Part shown: positions 35,536-59,292 of the stretch, one piece after another
How the letters are laid out: every line of letters begins with the position of its first letter
How positions within the stretch are numbered: position 1 is the first letter of the stretch
NCBI GenBank assembly: GCA_963752285.1
Contig: CAVVXN010000005.1
Coordinates: 1,312,001-1,376,000, forward strand
Reading direction: 5' to 3'
From: an uncultured Planctomycetota bacterium
GTDB taxonomy: Bacteria; Planctomycetota; PLA2; JAEUHO01
DNA length: 64,000 nt
The notes under the pieces: model-generated
Told to the model about the DNA's origin: nothing
What the model saw: only the letters and a program-made list of their open reading frames with translations
Database searches by the model: none
Translations under genes and position numbers: made by a program

Positions 35536-36941
35536 GACGGCGCTCCCGGGGCGACCGGCGCGGACGCCGGGGCCGGCGCGGCGCCGCCCGACGCCGCGGG
35601 CGCCGGGGCCTTCGCCTGTCGCACGCGCAGCGCCGTGCGCGAGGCCTGGAAGAGCTGGCTCAGCGGGATGTGGGAGGGGCACACGTACGAGCAGCAGCCG
35701 CAGAGCATGCAGTCGGACAGGTGGTGGCCCGCCATCTCGTCCTCGCGGCCCGCGAGGGCGAGCTGGCCGAGGATCTGCGGGTTCAGGAACACGGGGCACG
35801 CGTCGAGGCAGTGTCCGCACCGGATGCACGGGTACGTCTCGGGGCGGCGGACCTCGCCCTCCACGAGGACGACGATGCCCGTGGTGCCCTTCGTCACGGG
35901 CGCGTCGAGGTTCGCGATCGAGGCGCCCATCATGGGCCCGCCGTTCACGACCTCGCGCGCGTCCTCGGTGAGCCCGCCGCTCGCGTCGAGGAGGTCGCGG
36001 ATCTTCGTACCGACCGGCACGATCCAGTTCCCGGGCCGACGGACGCCGTGGCCCGTGACCGTCACGATGCGCTCGATCAGGGGCAGCCCCGTCTCGAAGA
36101 CCTCCGCGATCGTGGCCACCGACGCGACGTTCTGGACGATCACGCCCACGTCCATGGGAAGGCGGCCCGTCGGCACGCGGCGCCGGAGGAGGGCGTCGAT
36201 GAGCATCTTCTCGGCGCCCTGCGGGTATTTCACGGTGAGGCCCACGATCTCGACGTCGAGGTCGGTCGGCCGCGTGGCCTTCATGCGTTCGAGCGCGTCG
36301 GGCTTGTTCTTCTCGATCCCCACGATCGCGCGCGGCACGCCGAGACAGCGCATCATCAGGCGGATGCCGAGGTGCACCCGCTCGGGAAAGTCCACCATCG
36401 TCCGGTGGTCGGTCGTGAGGTACGGCTCGCACTCGCAGCCGTTGATCACCAGCGTGTCGATCGACTTCCCGTCCGGGGGCGACAGCTTCACGTGGGTCGG
36501 GAACGCGGCGCCGCCGAGGCCCACCACCCCCGCGTGGCGGACCGCTTCGACGGTCTCCTCGCGCGTCAGGCGCTCCCAGGCCGGGACCAGGCGCGGCCTC
36601 GGCGCCTGCGCGGACCAGGGCTCGACCTCGATCCGGACCGAAGTCTCCATGGAGCCGTCCGGGTGCGGCCAGAGTCCGACCGACACGACGCGCCCGGACG
36701 CCGACGCGTGGATCGGCACGGAGACCCAGCCGTCGGCCTCGGCCACGACGTCGCCGCGCTCCACGCGGTCGCCCTCCCGGACGATCGGCCGCGCGGGCCG
36801 GCCCGCGTGCTGTCGCACGGGGAGGACGACCTCCGCCGGGAAGGGCATGCGACGCACAGGCAGGTGCGCCGTCAGCTCCTTCGCCTCGGGCGGGTGGACG
36901 CCGTGCCGGAAGCGGGGCTTCGTGTGGTTCGGCTTCGCCAT
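35532..36941 (-). CDS. rnfC: Rnf electron transport complex subunit C
   Basis: GVHPPEAK, GLGGAAFPTHVKL, NGCECEPYLTTD, KYPQGAEK, GGPMMG, CIRCGHCLDACP and CMLCGCCSYVCP. Confidence 0.96.
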   Translation of the reverse strand: MAKPNHTKPRFRHGVHPPEAKELTAHLPVRRMPFPAEVVLPVRQHAGRPARPIVREGDRVERGDVVAEADGWVSVPIHASASGRVVSVGLWPHPDGSMETSVRIEVEPWSAQAPRPRLVPAWERLTREETVEAVRHAGVVGLGGAAFPTHVKLSPPDGKSIDTLVINGCECEPYLTTDHRTMVDFPERVHLGIRLMMRCLGVPRAIVGIEKNKPDALERMKATRPTDLDVEIVGLTVKYPQGAEKMLIDALLRRRVPTGRLPMDVGVIVQNVASVATIAEVFETGLPLIERIVTVTGHGVRRPGNWIVPVGTKIRDLLDASGGLTEDAREVVNGGPMMGASIANLDAPVTKGTTGIVVLVEGEVRRPETYPCIRCGHCLDACPVFLNPQILGQLALAGREDEMAGHHLSDCMLCGCCSYVCPSHIPLSQLFQASRTALRVRQAKAPAPAASGGAAPAPASAPVAPGAPS

Positions 36942-36946
36942 GGTGC

Positions 36947-42004: not shown

Positions 42005-42852
42005 CCGTTGACACTCCTCGCGAGCTCGCGCGGAGGCGTGAGCTGCGCGTGCTCGACCCAGAGGATGGCTCCCGTCGGGCACCGTGTGGCGGCCTCGGGC
42101 CGGGCCGCGTCGTTCTTCGTGTAGTCGATCACCGCGAGACCCCGGCGGATCTCGATCAGGCCGGGCGCGGCGTCGTCTACGCAGCGGCCGCATCCCGTGC
42201 AGGCCACCTGGCACTGCGCCTGTGCCTCGTCGCCCTCGAGGAGGCTCCGGCACTGGACGATCAGGTGCTGTTCCACCGGCATGATGGAGAACAAGTCCTT
42301 CGGGCACGCGTCCACGCAGTCGCCGCACGCCGTGCAGCGCTCGGGCGTCACGACCGGCAGCCCGACGGGGTTCATGTGGATCGCGTCGAACGTGCAGGCG
42401 CGGGCGCAGTCGGCCAGGCCGAGGCACCCCCACGAGCACGCCTTCCCGCCCCCCGCGACCGCGGCCGCGGCGCGGCAGGTCAGGAGGCCCGTGTAGTCGG
42501 CGCGCTGCACGGCGACGTCGCACCCGCCCGCGCAGAGCAGCCGGGCGACGCGCTTCACGGCCTCGCCCGCCTCGACGCCCAGGTAGTCGGCGACGGCCTG
42601 GATCCCCTCGGGGTTCATGTTCGTGCACTTCGCGGGCTGGGCCGCGCCGCCGACGAGCCCCTCCGCGAACGAGCGGCAGCCGGCGAAGCCGCAGGCCCCG
42701 CAGTTCGTCCCGGGGAGCAGGTCGGTCACCGCGTCGATCCGCGGGTCCTCCCAGACCCTCAGACGGCGGTTCGCCAGCGCGATGAGCGAGCCGAACACGA
42801 GGCCGACGCCGCCCAGCACGAGCACCGAGTCGAGGATCTGGGTGGGATCCAC
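42001..42852 (-). CDS. rnfB: Rnf electron transport complex subunit B
   Basis: N-terminal TM, DPRIDAV..LPGTNCGACGFAGC, several 4Fe-4S motifs; SD GGAGG before GTG. Confidence 0.93.
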   Translation of the reverse strand: MDPTQILDSVLVLGGVGLVFGSLIALANRRLRVWEDPRIDAVTDLLPGTNCGACGFAGCRSFAEGLVGGAAQPAKCTNMNPEGIQAVADYLGVEAGEAVKRVARLLCAGGCDVAVQRADYTGLLTCRAAAAVAGGGKACSWGCLGLADCARACTFDAIHMNPVGLPVVTPERCTACGDCVDACPKDLFSIMPVEQHLIVQCRSLLEGDEAQAQCQVACTGCGRCVDDAAPGLIEIRRGLAVIDYTKNDAARPEAATRCPTGAILWVEHAQLTPPRELARSVNG

Positions 42853-42860
42853 GTCGCCTC

Positions 42861-43865
42861 CTACGAGCCCGAAACCGGTCCGGCCTGCTGCAGGAGCCAC
42901 GCCGCGAGGCGCCCCGCGGGGTCGGCCGGCGGTCCTGAGGCGCCCGACGCGGGCGTGGCCGCGGTCTGCGCCTCGAGGAGACGGGACAGGTGTCGCATCG
43001 TCTCGGCCTGCTGGAACACGCTCCACGCGCCGACCGGACGCGCGGGCGCCGTCTCGGGGAGGTGGACCGCGCCGAGCGCGTTCGATGCGCCGCCCTCGAC
43101 CGCGGGGTCGTGGACGAAGCGCGCCGCACCCTCCGGCACGACGGCCGCGACGCCGGGGCCCTTCCACGCGCCGAGACCCGCGAGGCCCGCGAGCGACGTG
43201 ACCTGGGCGACGTACGTGCCCGGCGTCACGAGCCGGGCGAGCGGCGCGACCGGGCACGCGCCGCGCACGAGGAGCACGAGCTTCATCTCTCCGTCGAGGT
43301 AGCCGGCCAGACAGTCGGCGAGGAGGTCGCCTCCGTCCACGTCCACGACGAGCGGCGGGGCGATCCGGCGCTCGCCGCGGTTCCAGCGGAGGAAGGGAAA
43401 GGGGCGCGCGAGGTCCGTCGCGCCGGCCGCGTCCGGCCGTCCCGCGCGCGCGAGCTCGGCGGCGCGGGCGGCCGCGAAGGCGCGGCCCACCTCGCCGAGG
43501 CGCGCCTCGACGACGTGGTGGAGGCTCGCGCCGGAAGGCACCTCCACGCGGAACGCCGCGTCGCCCCGTTCGAGGAGGTCGGTCAGGACGCGGAACGCCT
43601 GCTCGACGATCGCCATCGCGCCGGGCTCGACGACGGCACGCTCCCGGCGCGCGACGGCCTCGAACAGGTCGCCGCGGATGCGCCCGAGGGCGAACGCCCC
43701 GAGGTCCGCCGCCCCGCCGCCCCGCGGGTCGGTCGCGTCGCCCTGCGCGTCCGTCGCCATGTCGCGGAGACGCTCGATCGTGGCCGCCAGCGCCGATCGG
43801 AACGCGCCGAGCGGTCGGCTCAGGGTCTCGAAGACGTTCGGCTCGTTCGGCTTCTCAGACGGCAT
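42861..43865 (-). CDS. Hypothetical protein resembling a degenerate PFOR TPP-binding (beta) domain
   Basis: Coupled between korB and rnfB; several segments align by eye with the beta region of the adjacent PFOR but lack the GDG..N motif and the cluster cysteines. Confidence 0.75.
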   Translation of the reverse strand: MPSEKPNEPNVFETLSRPLGAFRSALAATIERLRDMATDAQGDATDPRGGGAADLGAFALGRIRGDLFEAVARRERAVVEPGAMAIVEQAFRVLTDLLERGDAAFRVEVPSGASLHHVVEARLGEVGRAFAAARAAELARAGRPDAAGATDLARPFPFLRWNRGERRIAPPLVVDVDGGDLLADCLAGYLDGEMKLVLLVRGACPVAPLARLVTPGTYVAQVTSLAGLAGLGAWKGPGVAAVVPEGAARFVHDPAVEGGASNALGAVHLPETAPARPVGAWSVFQQAETMRHLSRLLEAQTAATPASGASGPPADPAGRLAAWLLQQAGPVSGS

Positions 43866-44814
43866 GGCGGTCGAGCTCCCCGTTCAGGATCGAGATGCGC
43901 TCCTCCGCGGTCAGCACGGGGAGGCGCCGGATCTCGTCGTAGCGCGCCCGGGTCGGGTCGCAGAAGAACAGGCCCAGGCGCACCCGCCCCGCGTCCTCCG
44001 CGAGCTCGCGGGCCCGCGAGAGGTCGTGCGGGTCGTGGCGAACCTGGTTCTTGTAGACCGACTCGGTGTCGTCGTCGCGGATCCCGTCCGCGTGGACGAG
44101 GATCTCGGTGTGGTCGGGGTTCTGCGCCGCGTCGCGGTAGATCCCCGGCGTCCACACGGGACAGCGCTGGAGGATCCGCACGAACGCGAAGCCCGGGTGC
44201 TTCCACGCGGCCTCGAGCGTCGCCGCGAGGTGACCGGGCGCCCAGTCCGCCGTCTGCGCGACGAAGGAGGCGTTCGTCACGCCGAGGGTCGCCGTGAGCG
44301 GGTTCAGCGCGGGCAGGTACGAGCCGTGGGGCTGCGTGAGGCTCGGGTGACCCTGCGGCGTCGTCGGGGACGTCTGGTTCTTGGTGAGACCGTAGATGTT
44401 GTTGTCGAGGAGCAGCGCGACGAGGTTCACGTTGTACCGGACCGCGTGGATCCAGTGGGCCGCGCCGATCGAGCAGCAGTCGCCGTCGCCCATCACCGTG
44501 AACACGTCCAGGTCGGGGCGCGCGAGCTTGACGCCGATCGAGACGGGCAGGGCGCGGCCGTGGATCCCGTGGAAGCCGTACGTCTTCAGATAGTGGGGGA
44601 AGCGGCTCGAGCACCCGATCCCCGAGACGAAGACCGTCCGCTCCGGCTCGAGCTGCTTCGCCGCGAGCAGGCGCAGCGTCGCGCCGAGGATCGCGTGGTC
44701 GCCGCATCCCGGGCACCAGCGCGCCACCGGACCTTCGTAGTCCCCGACCTCCCACGTGCGGTCGTCCTCGACGACCGCCGCGCAGCCCGCGAGGGCACAG
44801 CTCGGCTCGATCAC
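43855..44814 (-). CDS. korB: 2-oxoacid:ferredoxin oxidoreductase beta subunit
   Basis: WCPGCGD, SGIGCSSRFP, HGRALP, GDGD..NNIYGLTKNQTSPT, QRCP. Confidence 0.93.
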   Translation of the reverse strand: MIEPSCALAGCAAVVEDDRTWEVGDYEGPVARWCPGCGDHAILGATLRLLAAKQLEPERTVFVSGIGCSSRFPHYLKTYGFHGIHGRALPVSIGVKLARPDLDVFTVMGDGDCCSIGAAHWIHAVRYNVNLVALLLDNNIYGLTKNQTSPTTPQGHPSLTQPHGSYLPALNPLTATLGVTNASFVAQTADWAPGHLAATLEAAWKHPGFAFVRILQRCPVWTPGIYRDAAQNPDHTEILVHADGIRDDDTESVYKNQVRHDPHDLSRARELAEDAGRVRLGLFFCDPTRARYDEIRRLPVLTAEERISILNGELDRHAV

Positions 44815-46736
44815 GCGTCACCTCCCTTCGCGGTCTTCCCGAAGCGTTCGCGGACGGCCCGGAGGATCTGGCCCGGCCGCAGCGGCTCGCCCGGCACGCG
44901 GGTCCAGCAGTCGGCGTCCACGAGCAGCTGCCCGCGCAGGAGCCAGGCGAGCTGGCCCCGGCGACGGTTCTCGTCGTTCACGTGCGGGGCGTCCGGCTCG
45001 TCGCTGTAGTTGATCTCGACGGTCAGGACGCGGCGGTACCGCCGGCAGATGTCCTTCACCCCGGGCGGGAGGGGCGAGAGGAACGTGAGGTGCATCGACG
45101 CGACGGAGAGGCCCTCCGCCCGCGCGCGCTCGGCCGCCTCCTCGATCGCGCCGCGCGTGCTCCCCCACCCGACGATCAGCAGGTCGCCCTCGCTCGGGCC
45201 GACGACGGGCGGCGGCTCCAGCATCGACTGCAGCGTGGCGAGCTTCCGGCTCCGCATCGCGTGGGCGCGCTGGTTCACCGCGGGGTCGTACGTGACCTTC
45301 GATCCCTCGTCGTGGCAGAGCCCCGTCGCCGTGAACATCCCGCCCGGCTGGCCCGGCACGAACCGACGCGAGAGCCCGGTCGCGGGGTCCCACTGGTACG
45401 GCTTCGCACCGGGGGGCAGCGCCGACTGGTCCGGGGGCCGCGCCTGCCAGCGCTCGTCCGGCTCGGGCCGCGCGAACGGCTGCACGCCCGTGGCGAGGTT
45501 CGCGTCGGAGAGGACCATGACGACGCATCGGAACGTCTCCGCGATGCGCCGCGCGGTCACCATGCAGTGGAAGCACTCCTCGATGGTCGAGGGCGCGAGC
45601 ACCACCTTCGGCGCGTCGCCGGGCTGGCCGAACATCGCGGCGAGCAGGTCCGACTGCTCCACCTTCGTGGGGAGCCCCGTGCTCGGGCCGCCGCGCTGCA
45701 CGTCCACCAGGACGAGGGGGGTCTCGGTGATGACGGCCAGGCCGAGGAACTCGGTCTTGAGCGCGAGGCCCGGGCCCGACGTGACCGTGAACGCGACCTT
45801 GCCCGCGTACGAGGCGCCGATCGCGACCCCGATCGCGGAGATCTCGTCCTCCGCCTGGTGCAGCACGCCGCCCGTGCGGTCGAACACCTCGCCGAGGTAG
45901 TGCGACACCGAGGTCGCCGGCGTGATCGGGTACATCGCGCAGAGCTCGAGCCCCGCGGCGATGGCGCCCATCCCGATCGCCGTGTTCCCGTTCATCACGA
46001 CCATCGGCTTCTCGATCGGTCGTGACGGCACATCGACCCGGAACTCGATGTGCTCCTCCGCCCACTGCATGCCCCGCTCGAGGAGCTGTACGTTCTTCTC
46101 GTACACCGCGGGGGACTTCTTGCGGAACTGGAACGCGATCTGTTCCTTCACGCGCTGGGGGTCGCGGCCGTAGATCGTGGTCAGCAGCCCGAGCGCGAAC
46201 ATGTTCTTGCCGCGTCGCGGGTTGTCCACCACCTCGAGCGACTCGGCCTCCATCGGCACCGGCACGAAGCGGTACCGCCGCGTGCCGAGCTCCTCCATGG
46301 CCGCGGTCCAGGCCTTGACGACGTCCGGGTCGGGGTGCTCGCTCCACATCGACTCGATGAGGATCACCGCGTCCTCGGCGAGCGCGCCGAGGCGGTGTCG
46401 CGAGAGGAGGACCTGCTCGTTGAACGCGACGACGAGCTGCGCCTCGTCGCCCCAGTTCGTCACGGGGTCCGTCCCGAGCCGGATCCGGACGCCGGACGCG
46501 CTCCCCGGGCTGCGCGGCGGGGGCTGGATCTCGGCCGGGATGATCTCGACCGTCCAGACGCCGTTCCCCATCTTCGCGGAGACGGCCCCGAAGGTCTGAC
46601 CGCACTTCTGCGCGCCCTCCCCGGAGTCCGACACCACCTCCACGGTGTGCTCGGGCACGGTGATCCTCCGCGGCGTGGTCGCCTGGGGTGCCGGCTCGGC
46701 GTGGTTCGCGGTCGCGGAGGGCTGCTCTCGAGTCAT
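44811..46736 (-). CDS. korA: 2-oxoacid:ferredoxin oxidoreductase alpha subunit (gamma-alpha fusion)
   Basis: SDSGEGAQ, YPITPAT, QAEDEI, TSGPGLALK, QRGGPSTGLPTK, GWGST. Confidence 0.93.
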   Translation of the reverse strand: MTREQPSATANHAEPAPQATTPRRITVPEHTVEVVSDSGEGAQKCGQTFGAVSAKMGNGVWTVEIIPAEIQPPPRSPGSASGVRIRLGTDPVTNWGDEAQLVVAFNEQVLLSRHRLGALAEDAVILIESMWSEHPDPDVVKAWTAAMEELGTRRYRFVPVPMEAESLEVVDNPRRGKNMFALGLLTTIYGRDPQRVKEQIAFQFRKKSPAVYEKNVQLLERGMQWAEEHIEFRVDVPSRPIEKPMVVMNGNTAIGMGAIAAGLELCAMYPITPATSVSHYLGEVFDRTGGVLHQAEDEISAIGVAIGASYAGKVAFTVTSGPGLALKTEFLGLAVITETPLVLVDVQRGGPSTGLPTKVEQSDLLAAMFGQPGDAPKVVLAPSTIEECFHCMVTARRIAETFRCVVMVLSDANLATGVQPFARPEPDERWQARPPDQSALPPGAKPYQWDPATGLSRRFVPGQPGGMFTATGLCHDEGSKVTYDPAVNQRAHAMRSRKLATLQSMLEPPPVVGPSEGDLLIVGWGSTRGAIEEAAERARAEGLSVASMHLTFLSPLPPGVKDICRRYRRVLTVEINYSDEPDAPHVNDENRRRGQLAWLLRGQLLVDADCWTRVPGEPLRPGQILRAVRERFGKTAKGGDA

Positions 46737-46906
46737 GACATCTCCCGGGGACGGCGCGCGCGGCGCGCGACGGGGCGGGGCGGGGTCGCTACGGCGCGTG
46801 ACCGAACCTCTTCCCGACGCGAGACCGACGACCGGTCGTGCTCCCGGACGGCGGCGCCAAGGGGGTTCGAAGGTCGCACATGCGAGGTCGATCCCGCGGT
46901 CGGGTT

Positions 46907-46949
46907 CGTTGCGACTCATTCGCAACGGACGCTTCGAGCGTGCATTGTA
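46907..46949 (-). promoter_or_regulatory. Candidate kor-rnf operon promoter: TACAAT -10 box plus downstream palindromic operator
   Basis: TACAAT on minus strand at 46944-46949; perfect inverted repeat CGTTGCGA-N5-TCGCAACG at 46907-46927. Confidence 0.55.
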
Positions 46950-47059: not shown

Positions 47060-47653
47060 TCATCCGCGATGGCGGCGTCCGAGGCGCGCGAGGAGCGCGC
47101 GCCAACCGTGCCCGCGCCCTCGCTCGGTCTCCTCGCGCCGGCGCTCGCTCGGCGTGGCGACGGTCACCACCTTGCTCTCGCGCACGAGCACCTCGACGGC
47201 GGTCGCCTTGTCGGATACAGGACCGGCGCGGTCCGACAAGGCGCGCACGCGCGGACACGGCGTCACGACGCCCGATTCCGCCCACGCGCGGGCCTGGTCG
47301 AGCGCACGCTCGACGACCTCGGCGACGTGCTCGGCCTCGAACGGCTTCAGCAGGTAGTCGAAGGCGCCCGCGTAGATGGCGGCCTTCACGCTCTCGCGGT
47401 CGCTGTGGCTGCTGACGATCAGGAACGGCACCCGCTCGTGGATGCGGGGCAGCAGCGCCTGCAAGAGGTCGAAGCCGTTCATCGTGGGCATCATCACGTC
47501 GGAGACGATCAGGTCGAAGGTCCCCTCCTCGTAGAGGTCCAGGGCCTCGGCGCCGTCGCGAGCGAGGACGGAGTGGTGCCCCTGCCGCGCCAGGAGGCCG
47601 GCGAGGGCCTCGCGGACCGCGGGTTCGTCGTCTACGAGCAGGACGTGGGCCAT
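47060..47653 (-). CDS. Response regulator receiver protein with basic C-terminal tail
   Basis: VLLVDDE, IVSDVMMP, VSSH, YLLKPF; SD AGGAGG; no recognisable HTH. Confidence 0.9.
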   Translation of the reverse strand: MAHVLLVDDEPAVREALAGLLARQGHHSVLARDGAEALDLYEEGTFDLIVSDVMMPTMNGFDLLQALLPRIHERVPFLIVSSHSDRESVKAAIYAGAFDYLLKPFEAEHVAEVVERALDQARAWAESGVVTPCPRVRALSDRAGPVSDKATAVEVLVRESKVVTVATPSERRREETERGRGHGWRALLARLGRRHRG

Positions 47654-47734: not shown

Positions 47735-48250
47735 TCAGGAGGCGTCCGGGGCCTCGATGATGAAAGCGCCGGTCGTCTCGTCGCGGCGGGGCAGGAGCTC
47801 CTCCGCCAGGCGGCGTTCGCCCTCGGCCATCGCCTCGACGCGCTGCGCCCGCACGTTGCCGCCGTACAGCAGCTCGTTCAGCACGCGGCGCATCTCCTCG
47901 TTGTCCCAGGGCTTCGTGAAGAAGCGGTGGATGCGGCCCTCGTTGATCGCGCTGATCACGAGGTTCAGGTCGGCCTGGGCCGTCAGCAGGATCGTGGTGA
48001 CCCGCGGATGGCGGGCGCGCACGTCCTTGATGAGGTCCAGACCGTGGGTGCCCGGCATGTAGTGGTCGCAGATGATCAGGTCCACCTCGGGGTGGCGTTC
48101 GAGGATGCCCCAGGCCTCGGCGGCGTCGTACGCGTGCAGGAGCTTAAACGGCTCCCGTCGGAACGTTCGCTGCAACGCCCGGTGAATGGTCTCCTCGTCG
48201 TCCACGATCAGCACCGTCTTCGGGTCGTCGTGGCTCGGGTCGTGGTTCAT
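47735..48250 (-). CDS. Response regulator receiver protein with short C-terminal extension
   Basis: VLIVDDE, IICDHYMP, LLTAQ, FFTKPW; SD GGAG. Confidence 0.9.
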   Translation of the reverse strand: MNHDPSHDDPKTVLIVDDEETIHRALQRTFRREPFKLLHAYDAAEAWGILERHPEVDLIICDHYMPGTHGLDLIKDVRARHPRVTTILLTAQADLNLVISAINEGRIHRFFTKPWDNEEMRRVLNELLYGGNVRAQRVEAMAEGERRLAEELLPRRDETTGAFIIEAPDAS

Positions 48251-49595
48251 GTCGGAACTCCGATCGGTCGCGGCGGATGAAAACGGGCAACTCCACCCGG
48301 AAGCAGGCACCGCCCCCGGCCGCGGTCTCGTAGCGGATGGTGCCTCGGAGGGACTTCGTGATCTCGCTCACCAAATGGAGCCCCAGGCCGGTCCCATGGC
48401 CTGGATCCTTCGTCGTGAAGAAGGGCTCGAAGACCCGCTGGCGGATCTCCTCCGGGATGCCCGGTCCCGTGTCCTCGACGACGAAGGCGATGTGGAAGGC
48501 GTCGGCGTCCTCGGCACGGACCTGGAGGACGCCCTCCTTCTGTCCGTCCATCGCGTCGAGCGCGTTCGACGCGAGGTTCAAGAGCACCTGGAGCACGCGC
48601 CCGGGGTCCGCCAGGATCAGACGCCGCGTCTTGGCCTCGGAGCGGAACACCAACGGCGGCCGGACGCGCGTCTTGAGGATCCGCGCGGCGCCCTCGATGG
48701 CCTCGAGCGGGTCCACGGGGAGCGGCACCGCGCGACCGCCCCGCGCCATCGTGGTGAGGTCCTTCACGACGCGCATGAGCTGGCGGCACGCAAGGCTGCA
48801 GTCGTCGAAGACCTCCTGCAGCTCCCGGGCCTCTCCCGCGCCGTCCTTGCCCTCGGCGACGGCGCGCTGCATGTCCTCGAGGATCTCGCGCGCCGGCTCG
48901 ATGCTGTTCGCGATGGCCGCCAGCGGGTTCTTCATCTCGTGGGTGATGCCCGCGGAGAGCATGCCGAGGGTCGCGAGGCGGTCGTTCGCGCGCAGCACCT
49001 CGCGCGTGGCCTTCAGCTCCTCGGTGCTGTGCTGCAGCTCGTCGGAGGTGTGGCGCAGCGCCTCCTCGACCTTCGCCTTCCCCTGCGCCTGCGCCCGCGC
49101 CGCGTGGGCGAGGTGGCTCATGAACAGCGCGACGACGAAGAAGAAGGCGAGGTGCGCGAGCGTGCCGAGCGAGAAGAGATCCGACGGTCCCGCCCCCCAC
49201 CGCGTGATCGTCGCGAACGCGACCGAGACGAGGATCGCGTTCACGAGCGCTGTGCCCACCCCCTCCAGGATCGCCGCGAGGAGCACGAGGCTGAGATACG
49301 CCGCGAGGAACCCAGGAACCGGCGCCCCGCGGATCACGACGAGGACGCCGACCGTCACGACGTCGAGCCCGAGGACCAGGCCGAGGAGGGTGCGCGAGCG
49401 CGCCCGGCGCCGCGGCCGCACGAGCGGGACCGAGAGCCCGTACGCGCCGACGAGCAGCCAGTAGAGCGCGCGGTGCCCGGGCGCGGCGCCGAGCCCGAGC
49501 AGAACGAGCCCGACCGCCGTCAGCGCGCGCAGCGCGCCGAGCACGGGACCCGGCTCGCTCGGCGTACGGGGCGTGGGCTCGCCGGCCGCCGTCAC
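48144..49595 (-). CDS. Membrane-bound sensor histidine kinase (NtrB-like transmitter)
   Basis: 5-6 TM segments; H-box AGITHEMKNPL, N-box QVLLNLASNALDA, G1 EDTGPGI, F FEPFFTTK, G2 GTGLGL. Confidence 0.92.
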   Translation of the reverse strand: MTAAGEPTPRTPSEPGPVLGALRALTAVGLVLLGLGAAPGHRALYWLLVGAYGLSVPLVRPRRRARSRTLLGLVLGLDVVTVGVLVVIRGAPVPGFLAAYLSLVLLAAILEGVGTALVNAILVSVAFATITRWGAGPSDLFSLGTLAHLAFFFVVALFMSHLAHAARAQAQGKAKVEEALRHTSDELQHSTEELKATREVLRANDRLATLGMLSAGITHEMKNPLAAIANSIEPAREILEDMQRAVAEGKDGAGEARELQEVFDDCSLACRQLMRVVKDLTTMARGGRAVPLPVDPLEAIEGAARILKTRVRPPLVFRSEAKTRRLILADPGRVLQVLLNLASNALDAMDGQKEGVLQVRAEDADAFHIAFVVEDTGPGIPEEIRQRVFEPFFTTKDPGHGTGLGLHLVSEITKSLRGTIRYETAAGGGACFRVELPVFIRRDRSEFRHEPRPEPRRPEDGADRGRRGDHSPGVAANVPTGAV

Positions 49596-51649
49596 GACAC
49601 CGCCTCCTCGACGGACCGCGTGCCCATCTCGCCGATGCCCGGTGGGAGGTCGATCCGAAGCGTCGAGGTCTCCCCGTCGCGGTCGGCGACCAGGTCGGCC
49701 CCGGCCAGGCGCACCTCGGACGCCAGCTCCTCGACGCCCGGGCACGCCTCGCACTCGCCCTTCCCGGGGGCCCAGATCTCGATCGAAGGGCGCCCGTCGT
49801 GACGACCCACGTCGAGGATGAACGACGCGGCGCCGCACTCGGCCACGTGCGTGAGGAGTCGGAACAGCCACCGGACCAGCTCCCCCGTCGGGATCCCGCA
49901 GGCCACCCGCCCGTGCTCGCGCACGACGGGCGGCGACAGGTCGGGCACGGCGACCGAGAGGTGGCGTACCGCGTCCCGCACCGCGGCGCCGACGTCGGTG
50001 CGTACGGCGGCGAGGCGATGCGTGACGGCCTGACCGAAGAGCGAGCCCACGAGCCCCGCGATGCGTCGCGCGTCGGCGCGGGAGTCGCCCACCGCCTCCC
50101 CGACCTCGGCGAGGTCCTCGGCGTCCACCGGCGTTCCGATCGACCACCGTTCGAGGGACTCGGCGACGAAGTCGAGCGTGGCGATCATCGCGCCGAGAGG
50201 GTTGTTGATCTCGTGCGCGATGCCGGCGGCGAGGCGATGCACGCCCTCTTGCCGCTCGCGGTCGAGCATGCGCCGCTCGCTCTCGAGGGCCGCGCGCTTC
50301 GCGATCTCGAGCTCCTGGGTGCGCATCCGGACCCGACGCTCGAGAGACTCCTTCTCCTCCCGGAGCGCCTCCGTCCGCTCGGCGACCGTCTCTTCGAGCC
50401 GGTGGTTGCCCTCGCGGAGCGCCGTGATCGCCTCCATGCGCGCGACCGCGAGCCCGAGGAACTGGAGCGCGGTGGGAAGCACCCCGCCCACGTCCGGGGG
50501 CAGGCCGACCTGGCGGGGTCCGAGGAGCAGCAGCCAGCCCGTGCGGGGGCCCGCGACGGGGAACGAGATGAAGAGCCCCCGTCCGCCCGCGGCATCGCCC
50601 GGCAGCACCGCGGTGACGCTCTCGTCCACGGGCACGGGCAGGGCGACGGGCGCGCGCTCCTCGAGCTCCCGGGCGACGCGGTCGAGGAGCCGGGAGTCGG
50701 ACTCGACGCCGCGCGTGCCGTGCACCCAGCGCCGACCGTCGCTCCGGGGCAACGCCAGCCAGCCCGTGGTCGCGTCGAGGTTCATCACCAGCCGGACGAG
50801 CAGCCCGCGCGCGAGCGTGGGCACGTCGTCGGCCGCCGCGCACACGGCGCCGATCTCGATCAGGAGACGGCGGAGCGACCGCTCCCGGTCGAGCTCCTTC
50901 AGGTCCGCCTCGCGGACCTTCATCCAGTGGACGACCTCCTTGTCGGAGGCAGGCGCCGGGGCCTCCCACGGGAGCGGCGCGGGGGGATCGGGCTCGACCG
51001 CGGTCTCGGGGCGGAATCGCTGGCCGACCTTCGACGCGTACCGCGCGGCGTCCGGGTCGTCGCGCCCCGGCGGGAGGGCGCGCGACGCCGCGCTGGCGAC
51101 GAGCGTCGGCAGGACTTCGAACACGTCGTCCGCAACGCGCACGCCGACGCAGCCGGTCGGCGCGGGCCCCGCGTCGGCGAGCCAGGGCGGAAGGAGCACC
51201 CCGCCGAGCGGCACGTCGGCCGCGTCCCGCACGAGGACCGCGAGCGGCAGGTCCGAGGCGGGCGGACCGACGTGCGCGAGGTGGCCGACGAGCTCGCGCC
51301 ACGACGCGGCGGCGGCGGAGCGGGCGCCGGGCCCCGCGGGGAGCACGAAGAGCAGGAGATCGGTCTCGGCGAGCAGGCGCCGGCGGAGGTCCTCGAGTCC
51401 GGACGAGTCCCCGGCCGTCAGGCAGTGGAGCCGGAGCTGATGCAGGCCGTGAGGGGGCAGGTCGAGGAAGGCGTACTCGACCTGGCCGGCCGCGTTCGAG
51501 CCCTCCTCGAGGCGGACCCTCCCGCCGCGCGAGGGGGCCTCGCAGGCCGAGTGGATGCGGGCGAGGAGCGCGCTCTTCGCGGAGCCCGGGGGCCCCCAGA
51601 GCACGAGCCTCAAGTGTGCCCGTCCATCACTTGCCTCGACGCGTGCCAT
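49592..51649 (-). CDS. MglA-like degenerate GTPase - GAF - HisKA - degenerate ATPase fusion protein
   Basis: N-terminus colinear with MglA (LVLWGPPGSAKS, LRLHCLT, LLAETDLLLFV); GAF-like middle; LEETVAERT / LERRVRMRT coil; H-box AAGIAHEINNPL; no N, G1 or G2 boxes. Confidence 0.75.
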   Translation of the reverse strand: MARVEASDGRAHLRLVLWGPPGSAKSALLARIHSACEAPSRGGRVRLEEGSNAAGQVEYAFLDLPPHGLHQLRLHCLTAGDSSGLEDLRRRLLAETDLLLFVLPAGPGARSAAAASWRELVGHLAHVGPPASDLPLAVLVRDAADVPLGGVLLPPWLADAGPAPTGCVGVRVADDVFEVLPTLVASAASRALPPGRDDPDAARYASKVGQRFRPETAVEPDPPAPLPWEAPAPASDKEVVHWMKVREADLKELDRERSLRRLLIEIGAVCAAADDVPTLARGLLVRLVMNLDATTGWLALPRSDGRRWVHGTRGVESDSRLLDRVARELEERAPVALPVPVDESVTAVLPGDAAGGRGLFISFPVAGPRTGWLLLLGPRQVGLPPDVGGVLPTALQFLGLAVARMEAITALREGNHRLEETVAERTEALREEKESLERRVRMRTQELEIAKRAALESERRMLDRERQEGVHRLAAGIAHEINNPLGAMIATLDFVAESLERWSIGTPVDAEDLAEVGEAVGDSRADARRIAGLVGSLFGQAVTHRLAAVRTDVGAAVRDAVRHLSVAVPDLSPPVVREHGRVACGIPTGELVRWLFRLLTHVAECGAASFILDVGRHDGRPSIEIWAPGKGECEACPGVEELASEVRLAGADLVADRDGETSTLRIDLPPGIGEMGTRSVEEAVS

Positions 51650-51721
51650 GCGGACCCCGGACGGACCCCGCCCGGTCCGTCGAAGCGCTATCGACCGGGC
51701 CCCCGAGGCGTCCCCATGCCA

Positions 51722-51749
51722 TCTTCAGAAAGCCTGAAGAAACCCTGAA
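51722..51749. promoter_or_regulatory. 11-bp direct repeat overlapping a 7-5-7 inverted repeat upstream of the signalling cluster
   Basis: GAAAGCCTGAA GAAACCCTGAA (51728-51749); TCTTCAG-AAAGC-CTGAAGA (51722-51740); AT-rich patch in GC-rich context. Confidence 0.5.
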
Positions 51750-51756
51750 CGGCGGG

Positions 51757-52953
51757 TCAGGCGAGGGGCGCGAAGCGCGCGAGGAGATAGGCCCCGACCC
51801 GTGCCGGCGTGGCCTCCCGTACCCGGTCCCGCCACGCCCCGAGGTCCACCCGCCCGGGCGGCCCGCCGAGCAGGGGCGAGAGGTGGATGCGGTCGTTCGC
51901 CCCGAGTCCGAGCTGGCCGACGAACGCGGCCGTCCGCTCTCGGTGGCGCGTCTCCACCTCACGCTCCCCGATCCCGACCAGCACCGTCAGCGATACCGCG
52001 ACCCCGGCCGCGCGCATCCCCCCTACCTCGTCCCGCACGCGTGCGAGGTCGCCCTCCTTGCCGAGCGACCGGCGGAGCTGCGGGTCCCCGGTCTCGAGGC
52101 CGATGGCCCCCTCGACGACACCGGCGGCCGCGAGCCTCCGCCACGCCGCGGCGTCCCGCCGCGGCGCGCGGTCCGGGTCGAGGAACGACGCGACGCCGCG
52201 CCGCAGCGCCCCGATGCGCGCCCGCACGCGGTCGAGCCGCCGGAGCAGGCGGTCGTCCCCGATCGAGAGCGCCGACGCGGACCCCAGGAACGCGCCGTCG
52301 CGCTCGGCCAGCGCGGGACCGAACCAGCGGACCACCCGGTCCAGATGCCGCTCGAACGACGCGGTGTCGAGCACCCGGAACGGCCTACCGCGCCACAGCG
52401 CGCAGAACGAGCACCGCGCGTTCGGACAGCCCGTCGCGGGCAGCACCACCACGTCCCGGTACCGGTGCGGGAGCAGCGCCGGCACCGACTCGGGGTACGC
52501 CCGACGGTACAGGGCCTCGTCCTCCGCGAATCGCTCCGCCGTCCACGAACGGGCGGCCTCGAGCCTGCGGAAGAGCGCCGCCCGCGCTCGCGGTCCGCCC
52601 GTAGGCGCGCGCTCCGCGTCGAGCTCGCCGCTCGGGTCGCTCGACTCGACCTCGCCGACCTCGCCGACCTCGCCGACCTCGCCGACCTCGCCGACCTCGC
52701 CGATCTCGCCGATCTCGCCGAGGAACGCCTCCACGCGGCGCCGCACGCGCTCGTGCACGCGGTCGCGCGCGTCGCGCTCGAGACCCGCGCCGCGCGCGAG
52801 ACCCTCGAACACGCGCCCGTCGAGAGCGCGCCGGTACCGCGCGCGCCCCTCGGCGAACGCGGCCCAACGACCGCTGGCGTCGAGGCGGAGGTGGAAACGG
52901 TCTTCCTCCTCCACCACGGCGGCCCAACGCGACACGTTCACGTGGAGAGACAC
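51757..52953 (-). CDS. Radical SAM protein
   Basis: ATGCPNARCSFC cluster motif, FLGSASAL, IGLETGD; candidate own GTG start 8 nt after TACCAT. Confidence 0.82.
   Translation of the reverse strand: MSLHVNVSRWAAVVEEEDRFHLRLDASGRWAAFAEGRARYRRALDGRVFEGLARGAGLERDARDRVHERVRRRVEAFLGEIGEIGEVGEVGEVGEVGEVGEVESSDPSGELDAERAPTGGPRARAALFRRLEAARSWTAERFAEDEALYRRAYPESVPALLPHRYRDVVVLPATGCPNARCSFCALWRGRPFRVLDTASFERHLDRVVRWFGPALAERDGAFLGSASALSIGDDRLLRRLDRVRARIGALRRGVASFLDPDRAPRRDAAAWRRLAAAGVVEGAIGLETGDPQLRRSLGKEGDLARVRDEVGGMRAAGVAVSLTVLVGIGEREVETRHRERTAAFVGQLGLGANDRIHLSPLLGGPPGRVDLGAWRDRVREATPARVGAYLLARFAPLA
52651..52722. repeat. In-frame 9-bp tandem repeat (CTCGCCGAC/T, about 8 copies) encoding E-(I/V)-G units
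   Basis: Five CTCGCCGAC, two CTCGCCGAT and one CTCGCCGAG units inside the radical SAM ORF. Confidence 0.9.
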
Positions 52954-54207
52954 GGCAGACGATGGTAGGCCGGCGCGGCCGCGGGTCCCCACGATGGCCG
53001 CGCCCCGCGTCACGGCGGCGCGCGCGGCCGCCCGGCCTGCCCGGCCTGCCCGCCCGCGCGCCTGCGGCGGGCTCTGGCGCTCCCGCCCTGCGGCGGGCTT
53101 ACCACGCTCCCGCCCTGCGGCGGGCTCGCGCCGCCCTCGCCGCGGCGTCTTCCCGACCGCGCGGAGCAGCCACGCCGGCCGCTCGGGCGGCTCGCGATCC
53201 TCGGGGAGGGGCTTGGGCGCGAGGAACGCGCCCGTCGCCGCGATCACGAACAGCGGTCGCCCGTCCGTGGACCAGCACCGAAGCGCGATCATCCCCAGGT
53301 CGTAGTTCTTGTGGTGGACCACGCAGCCGTCGAAGAGGTCCTTCGCCTCCCGACCGCTCCCGTCCGCGTGCGGCCTCACGTGGCACAGCTCCGCCGCTAC
53401 GCGCGTGCAGAGCCCGACCTCGCACAGGCCTCCCGAACGCCGACGGATCGCCCGGACCACCTCCGCCGGGACCTCCCGGTCCCCGGGGCGCTCTTCGGTC
53501 GGCGGAAGACGCCGCGGCCTGGGCTCCTTCCGCGTCGGGTCCCACCGTGCCCGGTACGCGTACGCGAGCACCGCCAGGAGCTGGCCGTTGTCGATCGCGC
53601 ACTCGGCCTTCTTCTTCGCGATCCTGCGGCACGCCCGCAGGTCGTCCGCGGCGTCGGGTCCCACGTGCGCGACGAAGGTCGTGACGTCGGACTCCGGCGC
53701 GACGTGACGTCGCGCGGCCAGGCGGCGTCCCACGCGACGGCGGAGCGCGCCGACGCGCAAGGACCTGGCGAGGTCGAGCCAGTCGTCGCCCGCCTCGAGG
53801 TAGCGCTCCGGGTCTACGAAGACGTCGCCGAGCAGGATGGCCGCCGCGAAGGAGATCCCGCCCGCGCGGACCTCCTCCTCCAGGCCGGGCAGGCGCTCCA
53901 GGGCGTAGCCGAGCATCAGGAGCTGACGCCCCCGCGCGCCGTCGAACCCGTAGCGCTCGGAGAGCTCCCAGGTCGAGGCGGCGCTCTCCCACACGCAGGA
54001 GCCCTGCTCGTGGAGGCGGACCATCAGCTTCGCGTAGGCGATCTCGGCGTCGCCGAGCGCGCGGCTCCGGGCCCGCAGGAGCGCGATCCCCTCGGGGTCC
54101 TTCTCTCCGCGGAGGGTGCGCCGGTCGATGCGCCGCTCGGAGATCCCGCCCTCGGAGGGGCGGCGCTCGGGGTCGCTTCGTTCGTGGAGTTCGCGTTCCG
54201 ACAGCAC
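52954..54207 (-). CDS. DUF222-like / HNH endonuclease domain protein with no stop codon before the radical SAM gene
   Basis: REVPAEVVRAIRRRSGGLCEVGLC..ELCHVRP..DLFDGCVVHH HNH-like zinc/nuclease pattern; helical N-terminus; GTG start 7 nt after TATCGT. Confidence 0.7.
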
Positions 54208-54316
54208 GAACGAAACGATAACGAATGGGGGGGACAGTCCCGGAGAGCCCGGAAATCAGGGGTCCGAGCCGGGCCGAGGTGACCGCGACGTGATCCCGCC
54301 GCGCGACGCTCCCCCC

Positions 54317-55948
54317 GTGACCCGCCCCCTCCTCCTCGCAACCGCCGCCGCGGCCCTCGCCCTCCTGGTCGCGATCGGTGTCGGGCGGCCGGGTCCCGCG
54401 ACGCTCGACGCCGCGCCGATCCCGTCCGCGCGGCCCGTGGCCCTCCCCGCTCCGAGCGACGGCCCGATGTTGCTGGGCCGGGCGACGCCCGCGCCGGCGG
54501 CGACGTCGGCCGATCCGTGGGTGGAGGACGGCGGCGTTTCTCGCAGAGACGCGTGGGTCCCCGCGTCGCCGCCTCCTCCGGTCCCCCAGGTGTTCCGGCA
54601 CGGCCCGACGTTCGTGGCGCGCGTGTCGGACGACGACGTCTCGGACGCGAGATCGGCGTGGCAGGTCCCCCTCGACGACGACGCGCACCAGCTCGTCGCC
54701 TACGACCTCGCCTCGCTCCGCCCCACCGTGGACGGACTCGACCCGCCCACGCCCGACGTCCCGACGCGGTGGTGGCGGCGGTTGGTCGAAGACGTGGCGG
54801 ACGCGGTCGGACGCGATCGGTGGACCGACGCCGACACGCTCCTCGCGTTCGACGCCGATCGCAACACGCTGTTCGTGCGCCAGGACGAGGACGGGCGGGA
54901 ACGCGTGGAGGCCGTGCTCGCCGTACGGGCCGCGGGACGGCTGTCGTTCGTGCCGCTGCACGTCGAGCTCGAGCCCGCGGACGGCACGCCACCCCAGTCC
55001 GTGGACGTGGACGTCCCCTGGGGCTCGATCGTCGAGGCGAAGCGCTCGACGGCCTGGCCGTACCTCGAGGACTACGACCTCGACGTCAGCCAGTGCGGCT
55101 GCCAGCTGTCGGATCCGATCCTCGGCGCGCTGGACATCGGCGTGGTCGTGCGCGCCTGCCGGATCGAAGAGACCGACGACGAACCCCGCCTCCAGGCGGA
55201 GATCCTGTACGCGACCGGCGAGCCTCGATCCGAACGCTTCCGCACGAGCCTCGCGGGCTGCTACGTGCCCATCGAGATCGAGCTCCCGACCGTCCCCCAC
55301 CAAGAGCACGCGCGCGTGGCGGTGCGCCGCGGTCGTCGAAGCCTGCGTCTCGAGGACGGCAGCACGGTGACGCTGACGGCCGGGCGGGAGCGAGCGGGCC
55401 CGGACGCGTCGCCCGTCGGCACGAGGTCGTTTCCCGCCGCGGACGCGCCAACCCGCCCGGCACGCGGCCCACGCGCCTTCCGGGTCGTGTGGGAGGACGA
55501 CGCGTTCGTCCCGTCGTGCGCGGCCGACCTCGTGCTGCGAGGGTCGGACGACGCGACGGCGTCCTCCGCGTTCCAGGGCTACACGATCGCCTCGCCGAAC
55601 GAGATCGCATCGCGCGCGGGGGCACCCGACGGCGACGCGTCCGCGCCGCGCCTGGGTCTCACGATCACGACCCGCGCGCTCTCCCTCGCAGGGGGGCACC
55701 TGCTGGATCTCGCGCTCGTCCGCGCCGAGGCGACCGGCGTCTCGCGGTCCGTGGAGGCCCTGTTGCCGGGGATCGAGTACGGCGCGGAGACGACGAGGAC
55801 GCTCCACCTGGCCGTGCGGGGTGTGCGCGAGGACCACCGCCAGGTGTGGGTCCCCGAGGGCGGATCGGCGCACGTCGAGGTCCGCGATCCCGACGGCCCC
55901 TCGTACTCCGTCACGTTCGTTCGCGAGGAGCCGCCGGTGCCGCGCTGA
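54317..55948 (+). CDS. Secretin-like (type II/III secretion-related) exported protein, divergent
   Basis: N-terminal signal; VAYDLASL and NTLFVRQDEDGRERVEAVL (N/NolW-like); YLEDYDLDV..DPILG..GVVVR and IELPTV resemble planctomycete secretin-like proteins. Confidence 0.5.
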   Translation: MTRPLLLATAAAALALLVAIGVGRPGPATLDAAPIPSARPVALPAPSDGPMLLGRATPAPAATSADPWVEDGGVSRRDAWVPASPPPPVPQVFRHGPTFVARVSDDDVSDARSAWQVPLDDDAHQLVAYDLASLRPTVDGLDPPTPDVPTRWWRRLVEDVADAVGRDRWTDADTLLAFDADRNTLFVRQDEDGRERVEAVLAVRAAGRLSFVPLHVELEPADGTPPQSVDVDVPWGSIVEAKRSTAWPYLEDYDLDVSQCGCQLSDPILGALDIGVVVRACRIEETDDEPRLQAEILYATGEPRSERFRTSLAGCYVPIEIELPTVPHQEHARVAVRRGRRSLRLEDGSTVTLTAGRERAGPDASPVGTRSFPAADAPTRPARGPRAFRVVWEDDAFVPSCAADLVLRGSDDATASSAFQGYTIASPNEIASRAGAPDGDASAPRLGLTITTRALSLAGGHLLDLALVRAEATGVSRSVEALLPGIEYGAETTRTLHLAVRGVREDHRQVWVPEGGSAHVEVRDPDGPSYSVTFVREEPPVPR

Positions 55949-59101: not shown

Positions 59102-59186
59102 TGGTGCGAGAGGGGGGATTCGAACCCCCACGGGTTGCCCCACAGGATCCTAAGTCCTGCGCGTCTGCCGGTTCCGCCACTCTCGC
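59102..59186 (-). tRNA. tRNA-Leu (TAG)
   Basis: GCGAGAG/CTCTCGC acceptor stem, anticodon arm CAGGA-CTTAGGA-TCCTG, long variable arm, GGTTCGAATCC T-loop, encoded CCA; TACACT -10 at 59206-59211. Confidence 0.96.
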
Positions 59187-59292
59187 GCGGGCGCCACGGC
59201 CGGCGAGTGTACGGGCGGCGCCGGCGGCGCTCCGCGCTCCCCCCCCGCGTCGGCTTCGCGGTAGGGTGACGCGGCACGAGGAGACCCTCGCC

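Follow-up and report, generated by a model that had tools for sequence, protein, structure and literature searches.

A putative pseudoGTPase fused to a kinase-like core without an ATP lid in a planctomycetal signalling operon

We analysed a 64,000-nt stretch of DNA from an uncultured Planctomycetota bacterium (contig CAVVXN010000005.1, positions 1,312,001 to 1,376,000; hereafter the window) and focused on one minus-strand gene (49592..51649), an ATG-to-TGA open reading frame (ORF) for a 685-residue protein (P0002) that is composed of a pseudoGTPase domain, a linker, a GAF fold, a long coil, a DHp hairpin and a pseudo-ATPase domain. The architecture is real and rare, appears to be undescribed, and a plausible mechanism can be proposed for it. 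The protein would be soluble and probably dimeric, with the layout of a class I histidine kinase in which both enzymatic modules are disabled in the lineage of the window. We give an even chance to the reading that it acts in a relay encoded by its operon, as a histidine phosphotransferase comparable to ChpT and Spo0B, with a pseudoGTPase in the state of a frozen switch as its adaptor. All strings quoted in the original prediction for this gene are present in the translation, namely GPPGSAKS (residues 19–26), HCLTAGDS (residues 75–82), AGIAHEINNPL with His479, RRLLAETDLLLFV and ELVRWLFRLLTHVAEC; the strand, which had not been given there, is the minus strand.

The N-terminal domain (residues 1–192; 51074..51649, minus strand) descends from an MglA-type, group-1-like small GTPase. 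Pfam yielded a single match for it, to AAA_16 (E = 0.0075). When the whole protein was searched with phmmer against all PDB chains, two matches were obtained at E ≤ 1, the better of which was Thermus thermophilus MglA (3t12_A, E = 3.6e-4), the sole GTPase matched by this single-sequence search; the alignment spans residues 7–147 and is free of gaps over residues 7–109. A profile built from an alignment of 12 relatives (A2) covered the full G domain and matched MglA with E = 4.7e-54 (Thermus) and 7.6e-47 (Myxococcus), the best PDB match other than MglA being an Arf-like protein (E = 4.5e-10). The AlphaFold2 (AF2) model of the protein has a mean predicted local distance difference test score (pLDDT) of 74.7, with values of ∼80 across most of the G domain. 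In a Foldseek search with this model, MglA chains took 10 of the 12 best PDB ranks (E 2.3e-10 to 1.4e-8, target template-modelling score (TMt) 0.69–0.78), and the remaining two were phytochrome kinases that matched the rest of the protein. Similarly, the language-model features of residues 1–195 scored 0.95 to clusters named MglA in the ESM Atlas. Both the predicted colinearity of the first ∼150 residues with MglA and the suggested check for an MglA/Ras-like fold at the N-terminus thus came out positive.

Since the alignment to 3t12_A has no gaps, the residue numbers of the query equal those of the MglA literature, and the substitutions can be read off directly. In G1, Gly21 (the position of Ras Gly12) is replaced by Pro and Gly24 by Ala, and the degenerate P-loop GPPGSAKS (51572..51595, minus strand) does not conform to GxxxxGK[ST]. 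The Arg53–Thr54 pair, which comprises the intrinsic arginine finger and the switch I Thr, has become Ala53–Ala54. Thr78 of the G3 motif TxxGQ is kept, with Gly81 changed to Asp and Gln82 to Ser (T78-A-G-D81-S82), and the G4 motif NKxD is reduced to Asp142 (VR-DAAD / RDAAD), its Asn and Lys being gone. The loss of the P-loop Gly to Ala, of the catalytic Gln and of the NKRD box, as noted in the original prediction, is therefore confirmed by the gap-free alignment. In MglA, the Q82A exchange is reported to abolish hydrolysis and R53A to lower it strongly (PMC3199381), and the Arg53 arginine finger is described as conserved in all group 1 members (PMC4316618). Lys25 is kept in P0002, position 26 is Ser (Thr in MglA), and Asp142 is invariant across all 12 rows of A2. 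Homology thus places the domain in the MglA family, from which it departs in all four motifs (G1, Arg-Thr, G3 and G4) and in not standing alone, the G domain being fused to 490 further residues.

The G domain is followed by a Pro-rich, poorly conserved linker (residues 193–235; 50945..51073, minus strand), for which AF2 gave a pLDDT <50 at residues 214–234 and which has the lowest identity to relatives among all segments (12–33%). Next comes an N-terminal helix with a GAF fold (residues 236–386; 50492..50944, minus strand). No Pfam model, GAF included, matched residues 236–400 even at E ≤ 10. An AF2 model of these residues, built on an 11-row alignment (A3), reached a pLDDT of 91.0 and a predicted template-modelling score (pTM) of 0.84, and its best Foldseek matches in the PDB were GAF domains (E 9.2e-5 to 1e-2, query-based score (TMq) up to 0.67), including those of Cph2 (4bwi; E = 9.2e-5, TMq 0.66), 3cit (TMt 0.62), a dual-sensor kinase, DosS, NifA and PDE5A. 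A Roadblock/MglB-like identity of this domain, which would have made the protein a cis MglA–MglB fusion, was also considered and rejected: the model fits GAF, and no Roadblock protein was among the matches listed. From residue 387 to 501, AF2 predicts one continuous helix (pLDDT up to 96), the first part of which constitutes a long signalling helix or coiled coil (residues 387–465; 50255..50491, minus strand) and which then runs into the DHp hairpin. The GAF-like region and the signalling coil of the original prediction were accordingly recovered, the former by structure alone.

The DHp (HisKA-like) hairpin (50000..50254, minus strand) bears the phospho-acceptor His479 (codon 50213–50215) in the H-box AAGIAHEINNPLG. 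Pfam HisKA matched residues 472–537 with E = 2.3e-5 and 24.8 bits, slightly below the gathering score of 26.9. Within A2, P484 is invariant, and His479, N482 and N483 are nearly so; the only row without His479 is P0033, which has an unrelated C-terminus. All ten aligned members of the family described below keep His479, and P0002 retains the HE..NNP box. The last domain (residues 551–685; 49595..49999, minus strand) is a pseudo-ATPase, or degenerate CA, domain. HATPase_c was not matched at E ≤ 1 by the whole protein nor at E ≤ 10 by residues 550–685, and the C-terminal ∼135 residues alone matched no Pfam family at E ≤ 10. In the alignment with P0045, a protein with a genuine HATPase_c domain, a gap of ∼32 columns removes DTGCGI, FEPFF and GAGLGL, which correspond to the G1, F and G2 boxes, and the position of the N-box Asn is taken by His, Ser, Thr or Ala across the family. 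AF2 retains the alpha/beta core and places a short, low-confidence loop (residues 630–637) where the lid would be. Conservation in this domain is found in an RWLFRLL helix motif, a late RAGG.L motif and a final LPP strand. Judged by motifs, the N-box Asn and the entire G1/F/G2 ATP-lid segment have been lost from the C-terminal ATPase-like domain, and of the hallmarks of class I histidine kinases P0002 has the DHp His and none of the N, G1, F and G2 boxes. This agrees with the original description of an intact H-box (AGIAHEINNPL) next to an ATPase domain without the N-box Asn and the G1 and G2 boxes.

The G+C content by codon position in the gene frame is 0.80/0.53/0.93 (G+C of the window, 68–81%), the pattern of a real coding gene. 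Furthermore, three full-length orthologues of 693–706 aa were identified that align over 98–99% of their length at 39–48% identity (P0004, 47%; P0005, 48%; P0006, 39%). The database version of the window protein (P0003, 673 aa) begins at a TTG codon 12 codons downstream of the ATG at 51649. We favour the ATG, since the N-terminal residues MARVE...GRAHLRLV are kept in P0004 and P0005; the stretch between the ATG and the downstream TTG start occupies 51613–51649 (minus strand).

Related proteins were collected in two ways. A word-indexed search (E ≤ 1e-3) returned eight proteins, which comprised the window protein, the three full-length orthologues, one fragment and three generic kinases. A phmmer search with residues 1–200 against 1.84 billion cluster representatives returned 44 proteins at E ≤ 1e-3. 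Eight of these are of the ∼700-aa type (including the window protein and P0004), six of which match HisKA. P0045, P0054, P0033 and five shorter proteins, all described below, are also among the 44, and the rest are mostly stand-alone MglA-like proteins of ∼190 aa. Together with P0005 and P0006 from the word-indexed search, and with the window protein counted once, this gives a family of ten (P0002, P0004, P0005, P0006, P0014, P0017, P0018, P0021, P0023 and P0029). HisKA is matched by nine of them and HATPase_c by none; Arf is matched at E ≤ 0.01 by six, in three cases above the gathering score. The G-domain motifs vary between members: G1 and NKxD are intact in five of the ten, the Arg-Thr pair is present in three (P0017, P0018 and P0029), and TVPGQ is found in two (P0017 and P0029), both of which carry the full MglA motif set. 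Each of the five proteins in the two degenerate subclades has a P-loop of its own (GPPGSAKS, GPPCARKS, GPPCAGKP, GPAGSGTS and GTADGGAS). Two further proteins combine the G domain and HisKA with a real HATPase_c domain (P0045, 758 aa, 89.2 bits; P0054, 562 aa, 33.2 bits). In the full-length tree, the ten members form a clade (100/99) with P0045 and P0054 outside, and within it four well-supported subclades are joined in a polytomy. Since HATPase_c is absent from all ten members and real in the outgroups, the loss of the ATP lid is a trait of the family as a whole and preceded the loss of G motifs, which is specific to certain lineages and took place once or twice. The original label of a doubly catalytically dead protein consequently holds for the window protein, in which both modules are degenerate, and fails as a description of the family, in which the G motifs are complete in two of ten members and G1 and NKxD are present in three more. 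The absence of intact homologues, which the original prediction would have taken as a sign of a decaying gene, was likewise not observed: intact G motifs occur in P0017 and P0029, and full-length orthologues exist.

In five shorter relatives of 347–464 aa (P0015, P0016, P0019, P0024 and P0030), the MglA motifs are complete. P0015, P0016, P0019 and P0030 run colinear with the family as far as the GAF region reaches, and P0024 (compared with P0029) does so only over its first ∼270 residues. These proteins may be truncated gene calls or natural G-domain–GAF proteins without a phosphotransfer core. P0033 has yet another layout, with an MglA-like domain (G1 and NKRD intact) followed by ∼500 acidic, repeat-rich residues and no kinase core. 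A tblastn search of P0029 against 72,556 plasmids gave one match, a stand-alone Arf-like gene in Deinococcus ficus, and no fused form. Searching the ESM Atlas clusters of at least 50 members with the whole protein returned GAF/HisKA clusters, none of them with the fusion, and in a search of genome contigs, which brought up mainly generic kinases, the 80 loci retained from at least 618 matches all fell within query residues 311–636 (best E = 2e-10), with no orthologous locus.

Despite its lost motifs, the G domain is well conserved. Between P0002 and P0004/P0005, identity is 58/57% in the G domain, 45/41% in the GAF region, 53/53% in the coil, 55/62% in the DHp hairpin and 34/34% in the pseudo-ATPase domain, and between P0004 and P0005 the G domain is the most conserved segment of all (86%). 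We further calculated invariance, that is the fraction of positions unchanged among P0002, P0004 and P0005, in 20-residue windows. It is 0.42 for the whole protein and reaches 0.95 at residues 41–60, within the former switch I/beta2 region (RGGRVRLEEGSNAAGQVEYAFLDLPP, residues 41–66; 51452..51529, minus strand), which is the best-conserved stretch among the close orthologues. Residues 71–100 (beta3/switch II/alpha2) have a value of 0.80, the same as the H-box, and the P-loop segment (residues 21–40) has 0.50; the lowest values within the domain are those of the G4/G5 side (0.20–0.30). A tree of the G domain with 34 rows places the fused family together with the five mid-length proteins in one clade (100/100, with the bootstrap not fully settled), in which the subclade of P0002, P0004 and P0005 has a stem of 1.78 substitutions per site and tips of 0.07–0.39. 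A long stem with short tips points to a burst of change followed by constraint. On these alignments, the degenerate G domain is under constraint rather than drifting, and we infer from the pattern on the switch face that the old switch regions may have been built into a binding surface that does not depend on nucleotide.

The gene is directly followed on the same strand by three genes for two-component proteins. The TGA stop codon of the pseudokinase overlaps the GTG start codon (GTGA, 49592–49595) of a gene for a canonical membrane histidine kinase of 483 aa (48144..49595, minus strand), in which HATPase_c (E = 2.2e-25, all boxes visible), HisKA and an H-box are recognisable and hydrophobic segments fill residues 15–166; the database carries the same 483-aa call (P0056). 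Response regulator 1 (RR1; 171 aa, 47735..48250, minus strand; Response_reg, E = 1.9e-22), with its ATG at 48250 within the tail of the kinase ORF, and response regulator 2 (RR2; 197 aa, 47060..47653, minus strand; Response_reg, E = 1.5e-27), with a tail of ∼75 aa of no known family, are both receiver-only proteins. They are 32% identical to each other and possess the catalytic residues of receivers (DD, D, T and K in RR1; DD, D, S and K in RR2). At the kinase–RR1 junction, the kinase ORF extends ∼106 nt beyond the RR1 start codon before reaching its stop (48144–48250, minus strand). The kinase tail encoded there (ADRGRRGDH) is conserved in an alignment of 24 orthologues, with R466 and R467 nearly invariant; it is apparently the 'LIVDDEE' region of RR1 in another frame, and the coding periodicity shifts to the RR1 frame near 48271. 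This could mean that the gene overlap is conserved or, alternatively, that stop-poor, high-GC DNA has given rise to a shared gene-calling artefact.

The arrangement of pseudokinase and kinase appears to be kept in the relatives. Besides the kinase of the window, 37 kinase orthologues were found at E ≤ 1.2e-65, the next match being at 2.7e-38. Three of them (P0060, P0061 and P0089) lie on contigs of 891341, 370143 and 6061 bp, respectively, which are the contig sizes recorded for P0004, P0005 and P0006, so that by identical contig size all three full-length close orthologues of the pseudokinase co-locate with a kinase orthologue. RR1 has 176 homologues at E ≤ 1e-25, two of which carry the name 'Planctomycetota bacterium'. 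Among the best 120 of these, P0215 and P0288 match the 370143-bp and 6061-bp contigs, and at least 19 of the 37 kinase orthologues co-locate with an RR1 homologue by the same measure. Since the 6,061-bp contig has to accommodate proteins of 706, 493 and 168 aa, it leaves little room for anything except adjacency. A scan of 47 ORF translations from the window turned up neither a Roadblock protein nor a stand-alone GTPase, and Rfam, run on the whole window, revealed no riboswitch or leader near the gene.

How could such a protein work? Without an ATP site there would be no autophosphorylation, and His479 would have to be loaded in trans, while its retention in the whole family suggests phosphoryl chemistry rather than mere scaffolding. 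The operon encodes the four parts of a His-Asp-His-Asp relay, which makes a relay the most economical mechanism: phosphate would pass from the membrane kinase to one receiver, from there to His479 and then to the other receiver. The G domain, tethered by a disordered linker of ∼45 residues, would use the face once formed by switch I, beta2 and switch II to dock a partner and, as a frozen switch that is independent of nucleotide, place or gate the relay, with the GAF domain and the long coil passing further input to the DHp hairpin. In relatives with intact motifs, the same G domain probably renders phosphotransfer or docking GTP-dependent. Of the two functions named in the original prediction, scaffold or phosphotransferase, the coupled kinase and the two receiver-only regulators make a phosphotransferase in a relay the more specific choice and a scaffold the less specific one. 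The suggestion made there that the pseudoGTPase serves localisation or partner binding is in line with the conserved switch face and would fit this scheme. More tentatively, and at less than even odds in our view, the ∼700-aa proteins as a whole might represent an undescribed class of bacterial signalling protein, in which an MglA-type G domain is tethered on one chain to a histidine phosphotransfer core that is gated by GAF and always draws its phosphate from elsewhere. The GTP state would ancestrally have controlled the relay, and in the lineage of the window a true pseudoGTPase, turned into a nucleotide-free docking surface after a burst of change, would localise or gate the relay via a partner.

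Several observations weigh against a relay with a pseudoGTPase adaptor. The conservation of the switch face is computed from three sequences, and every statement on catalysis comes from motifs. P0002 retains Lys25, Ser26, Thr78 and Asp142 and may bind nucleotide without hydrolysing it, and the acidic residue after the phospho-acceptor His varies in the family (Asp in P0018, Asn in P0023). No sequence match to ChpT or Spo0B was found with Pfam and NCBIfam, in which the C-terminal half hits HisKA and, far below the cut-offs, kinase equivalogs. Neither RR1 nor RR2 has a recognisable output domain, the position of RR2 was seen in the window only, and the order of transfer and the part played by the two regulators are our proposal. 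Synteny was deduced from identical contig sizes rather than from the contigs themselves, and the best 120 of 176 RR1 homologues include none that matches the 891341-bp contig. The 37 kinase orthologues outnumber the relatives of the pseudokinase, which could thus be an optional accessory. A complex prediction with two copies of the cytoplasmic part of the kinase (residues 170–445) and residues 1–195 of P0002 scored 0.00 against a mark of 0.32 (one pairing, no controls), which speaks neither for nor against binding.

A different explanation would be that the protein acts directly on the neighbouring kinase, like RetS or DivL, for example through a DHp heterodimer, so that His479 is phosphorylated directly by the ATPase domain of the kinase, or the kinase output is blocked or redirected, and no receiver intermediate is involved. 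We regard this as unlikely. In its favour, the GTGA overlap of stop and start codons suggests coupled, stoichiometric synthesis with the kinase, their co-location is kept in the three close orthologues, and the DHp regions of the two proteins align colinearly, as does the long connector between their helices (BLASTP, 24% identity over 158 aa, E = 3e-5). RetS provides a precedent for a pseudokinase that acts on a real kinase. DivL, too, is described as a pseudokinase in the pathway of a working kinase (PMC4211667). At 24% identity, however, the two DHp domains are not recent duplicates, and the presence of two receiver genes in the operon suits a relay at least equally well. Moreover, heterodimers of histidine kinases are rare, and pure blocking needs no invariant His, which DivL indeed lacks. 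The invariant His also bears on a second alternative, in which the protein is a phosphatase or a phosphate sink devoted to RR1, RR2 or both. Its DHp would by itself remove phosphate from the receivers or drain them, and so set the gain of an ordinary kinase–RR1 pair. An acidic residue at His+1 and an Asn at His+4 constitute the phosphatase motif of the HisKA family, and P0002 keeps it (H479-E-I-N-N483), with N483 nearly invariant. The kinase–RR1 pair is also far commoner than the pseudokinase, as judged from the numbers of kinase orthologues and RR1 homologues given above, which would suit an optional accessory. Phosphatase activity in the HisKA family, however, does not strictly require the His, yet none of the ten members has lost it. 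A sink and a relay share roles that sequence cannot tell apart, and we consider this alternative quite improbable.

The remaining alternatives concern the state of the G domain and of the gene. The G domain could still be a working nucleotide switch with unusual motifs that regulates phosphotransfer through GTP like its intact relatives. This would be in keeping with the four retained residues, of which Asp142 is invariant in A2, and with the complete G motifs of P0017 and P0029. Nevertheless, Arg53, Thr54, Gly81 and Gln82 are all replaced, including the two positions at which exchanges abolish or strongly reduce hydrolysis in MglA (PMC3199381); the P-loop varies among the three closest orthologues, with the Lys or the Ser/Thr lost in others; and conservation within the domain is lowest on the G4/G5 side. 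A working switch therefore seems very improbable to us. That the gene is a fusion relic drifting towards a pseudogene could be argued from the lack of catalytic motifs in both enzymatic modules, and this we consider next to impossible: decay is contradicted by an open frame of 685 codons with a third-position G+C of 0.93, by full-length orthologues on three other contigs, by the G domain being the best-conserved segment between P0004 and P0005, and by the conservation of His479 and the RWLFRLL helix.

A comparison with known systems shows which parts of the proposed phosphotransferase have precedents. MglA of Myxococcus xanthus and Thermus thermophilus (group 1) shares the G-domain fold and sequence family with P0002, including the Thr of TxxGQ, and the intact relatives in the fused family also share the Arg-Thr pair, TVPGQ and NKxD with it. 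MglA is described as a single-domain switch that works with the Roadblock protein MglB (PMC3199381, PMC4316618), whereas the G domain of P0002 shares one chain with GAF and DHp modules and lacks Gly24, Arg53, Thr54, Gly81, Gln82 and the Asn-Lys of NKxD. ChpT combines a DHp His with a Bergerat-like domain in which the ATP lid is replaced, and is reported neither to bind ATP nor to have autokinase activity (PMC3433190), which makes the comparison drawn in the original prediction an apt one. Both ChpT of Caulobacter and Spo0B of Bacillus have, like P0002, a DHp-type hairpin with a phosphorylatable His and a lid-less Bergerat-like alpha/beta domain; they have no N-terminal sensor modules, however, in contrast to the G domain, GAF fold and ∼115-residue helix that precede the core here. 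The likeness is an architectural one. The nearest parallel at the level of the system is the actinobacterial conservon, in which the CvnA kinase, the Roadblock protein CvnB, CvnC and the MglA-like GTPase CvnD are described as one signalling unit (PMC4316618). It likewise places an MglA-family GTPase and a histidine kinase in one unit, but its parts are separate, its GTPase is active, and it has a Roadblock partner and no response regulator. In the window, the G domain is fused and apparently inactive, no Roadblock gene is nearby and two response regulators are present. DivL and RetS resemble P0002 as kinase-like proteins without autokinase activity alongside a working kinase; neither carries a G domain, and His479 is invariant here. 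Among eukaryotes, pseudoGTPases keep the G-domain fold with degenerate G motifs as a binding module, and Roco proteins such as LRRK2 join a Ras-like domain to a kinase on one chain; both are unrelated to the window protein in sequence and in kinase type. To our knowledge, no bacterial pseudoGTPase is in print. Indeed, in the literature searched, which did not extend to subscription journals or domain-architecture databases, no published description of an MglA–histidine kinase fusion or of a bacterial pseudoGTPase was found, in agreement with the original statement that the architecture was not recognised as described. The single paper there that mentions a pseudoGTPase alongside MglA deals with the GTP loading of Ras. 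A 2014 census of bacterial small GTPases took in single-domain proteins only, and the word 'Planctomycetes' is absent from its main text (PMC4316618).

Bacterial Ras-like GTPases have so far been treated as single-domain switches, and the known links of MglA to two-component signalling, Frz/RomR with MglA and the conservon, operate only in trans. A family in which MglA is covalently joined to a histidine phosphotransfer core would wire bacterial G-protein signalling directly to phosphorelays, in a way that can be tested. What becomes of a G domain after the loss of its nucleotide chemistry has up to now been studied in eukaryotic pseudoGTPases; with intact, half-degenerate and fully degenerate G domains on one chassis, the family would offer a natural series for addressing the role that remains. 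If true, an independently arisen ChpT/Spo0B-like protein with sensor domains would furthermore mean that the middle step of a phosphorelay can be regulated.

Downstream of the response regulator genes lies a long same-strand block (32491–46925, minus strand) that encodes the alpha and beta subunits of a 2-oxoacid:acceptor (ferredoxin) oxidoreductase, an RnfB-like Fe-S protein, a large single-chain pyruvate:ferredoxin oxidoreductase, RnfC/D/G/E/A and ApbE. The signalling operon might act on this redox block. The ORF at 36947–43225 (2092 codons) is not a single gene but combines two coding frames.

Upstream of the pseudokinase gene, a spacer of 107 nt precedes the ATG (51650–51761, minus strand). 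It contains a weak terminator-like hairpin over the stop codon of the preceding radical-SAM gene (51744–51761) and, just before the ATG, a perfect inverted repeat of 8 bp (GACGGACC...GGTCCGTC); no sigma-70-like promoter was found. The preceding gene (51757–54207, minus strand) encodes an 816-aa protein with a radical-SAM domain at residues 590–750 only (28.2 bits, slightly below the gathering score), the ∼580 N-terminal residues being without a Pfam or NCBIfam match. A tRNA-Gly called by ARAGORN inside this gene (52787–52863) was not confirmed by Rfam and is probably a false positive. An ORF of 610 aa (54116–55948, plus strand), which diverges from the radical-SAM gene, has coding-like third-position G+C and no match in Pfam or NCBIfam. 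Further along, a plus-strand gene (59251–61545) joins a Ser/Thr protein kinase domain to an FGE-sulfatase-like domain, and a tRNA-Leu (59102–59186, minus strand) is located just upstream of it.

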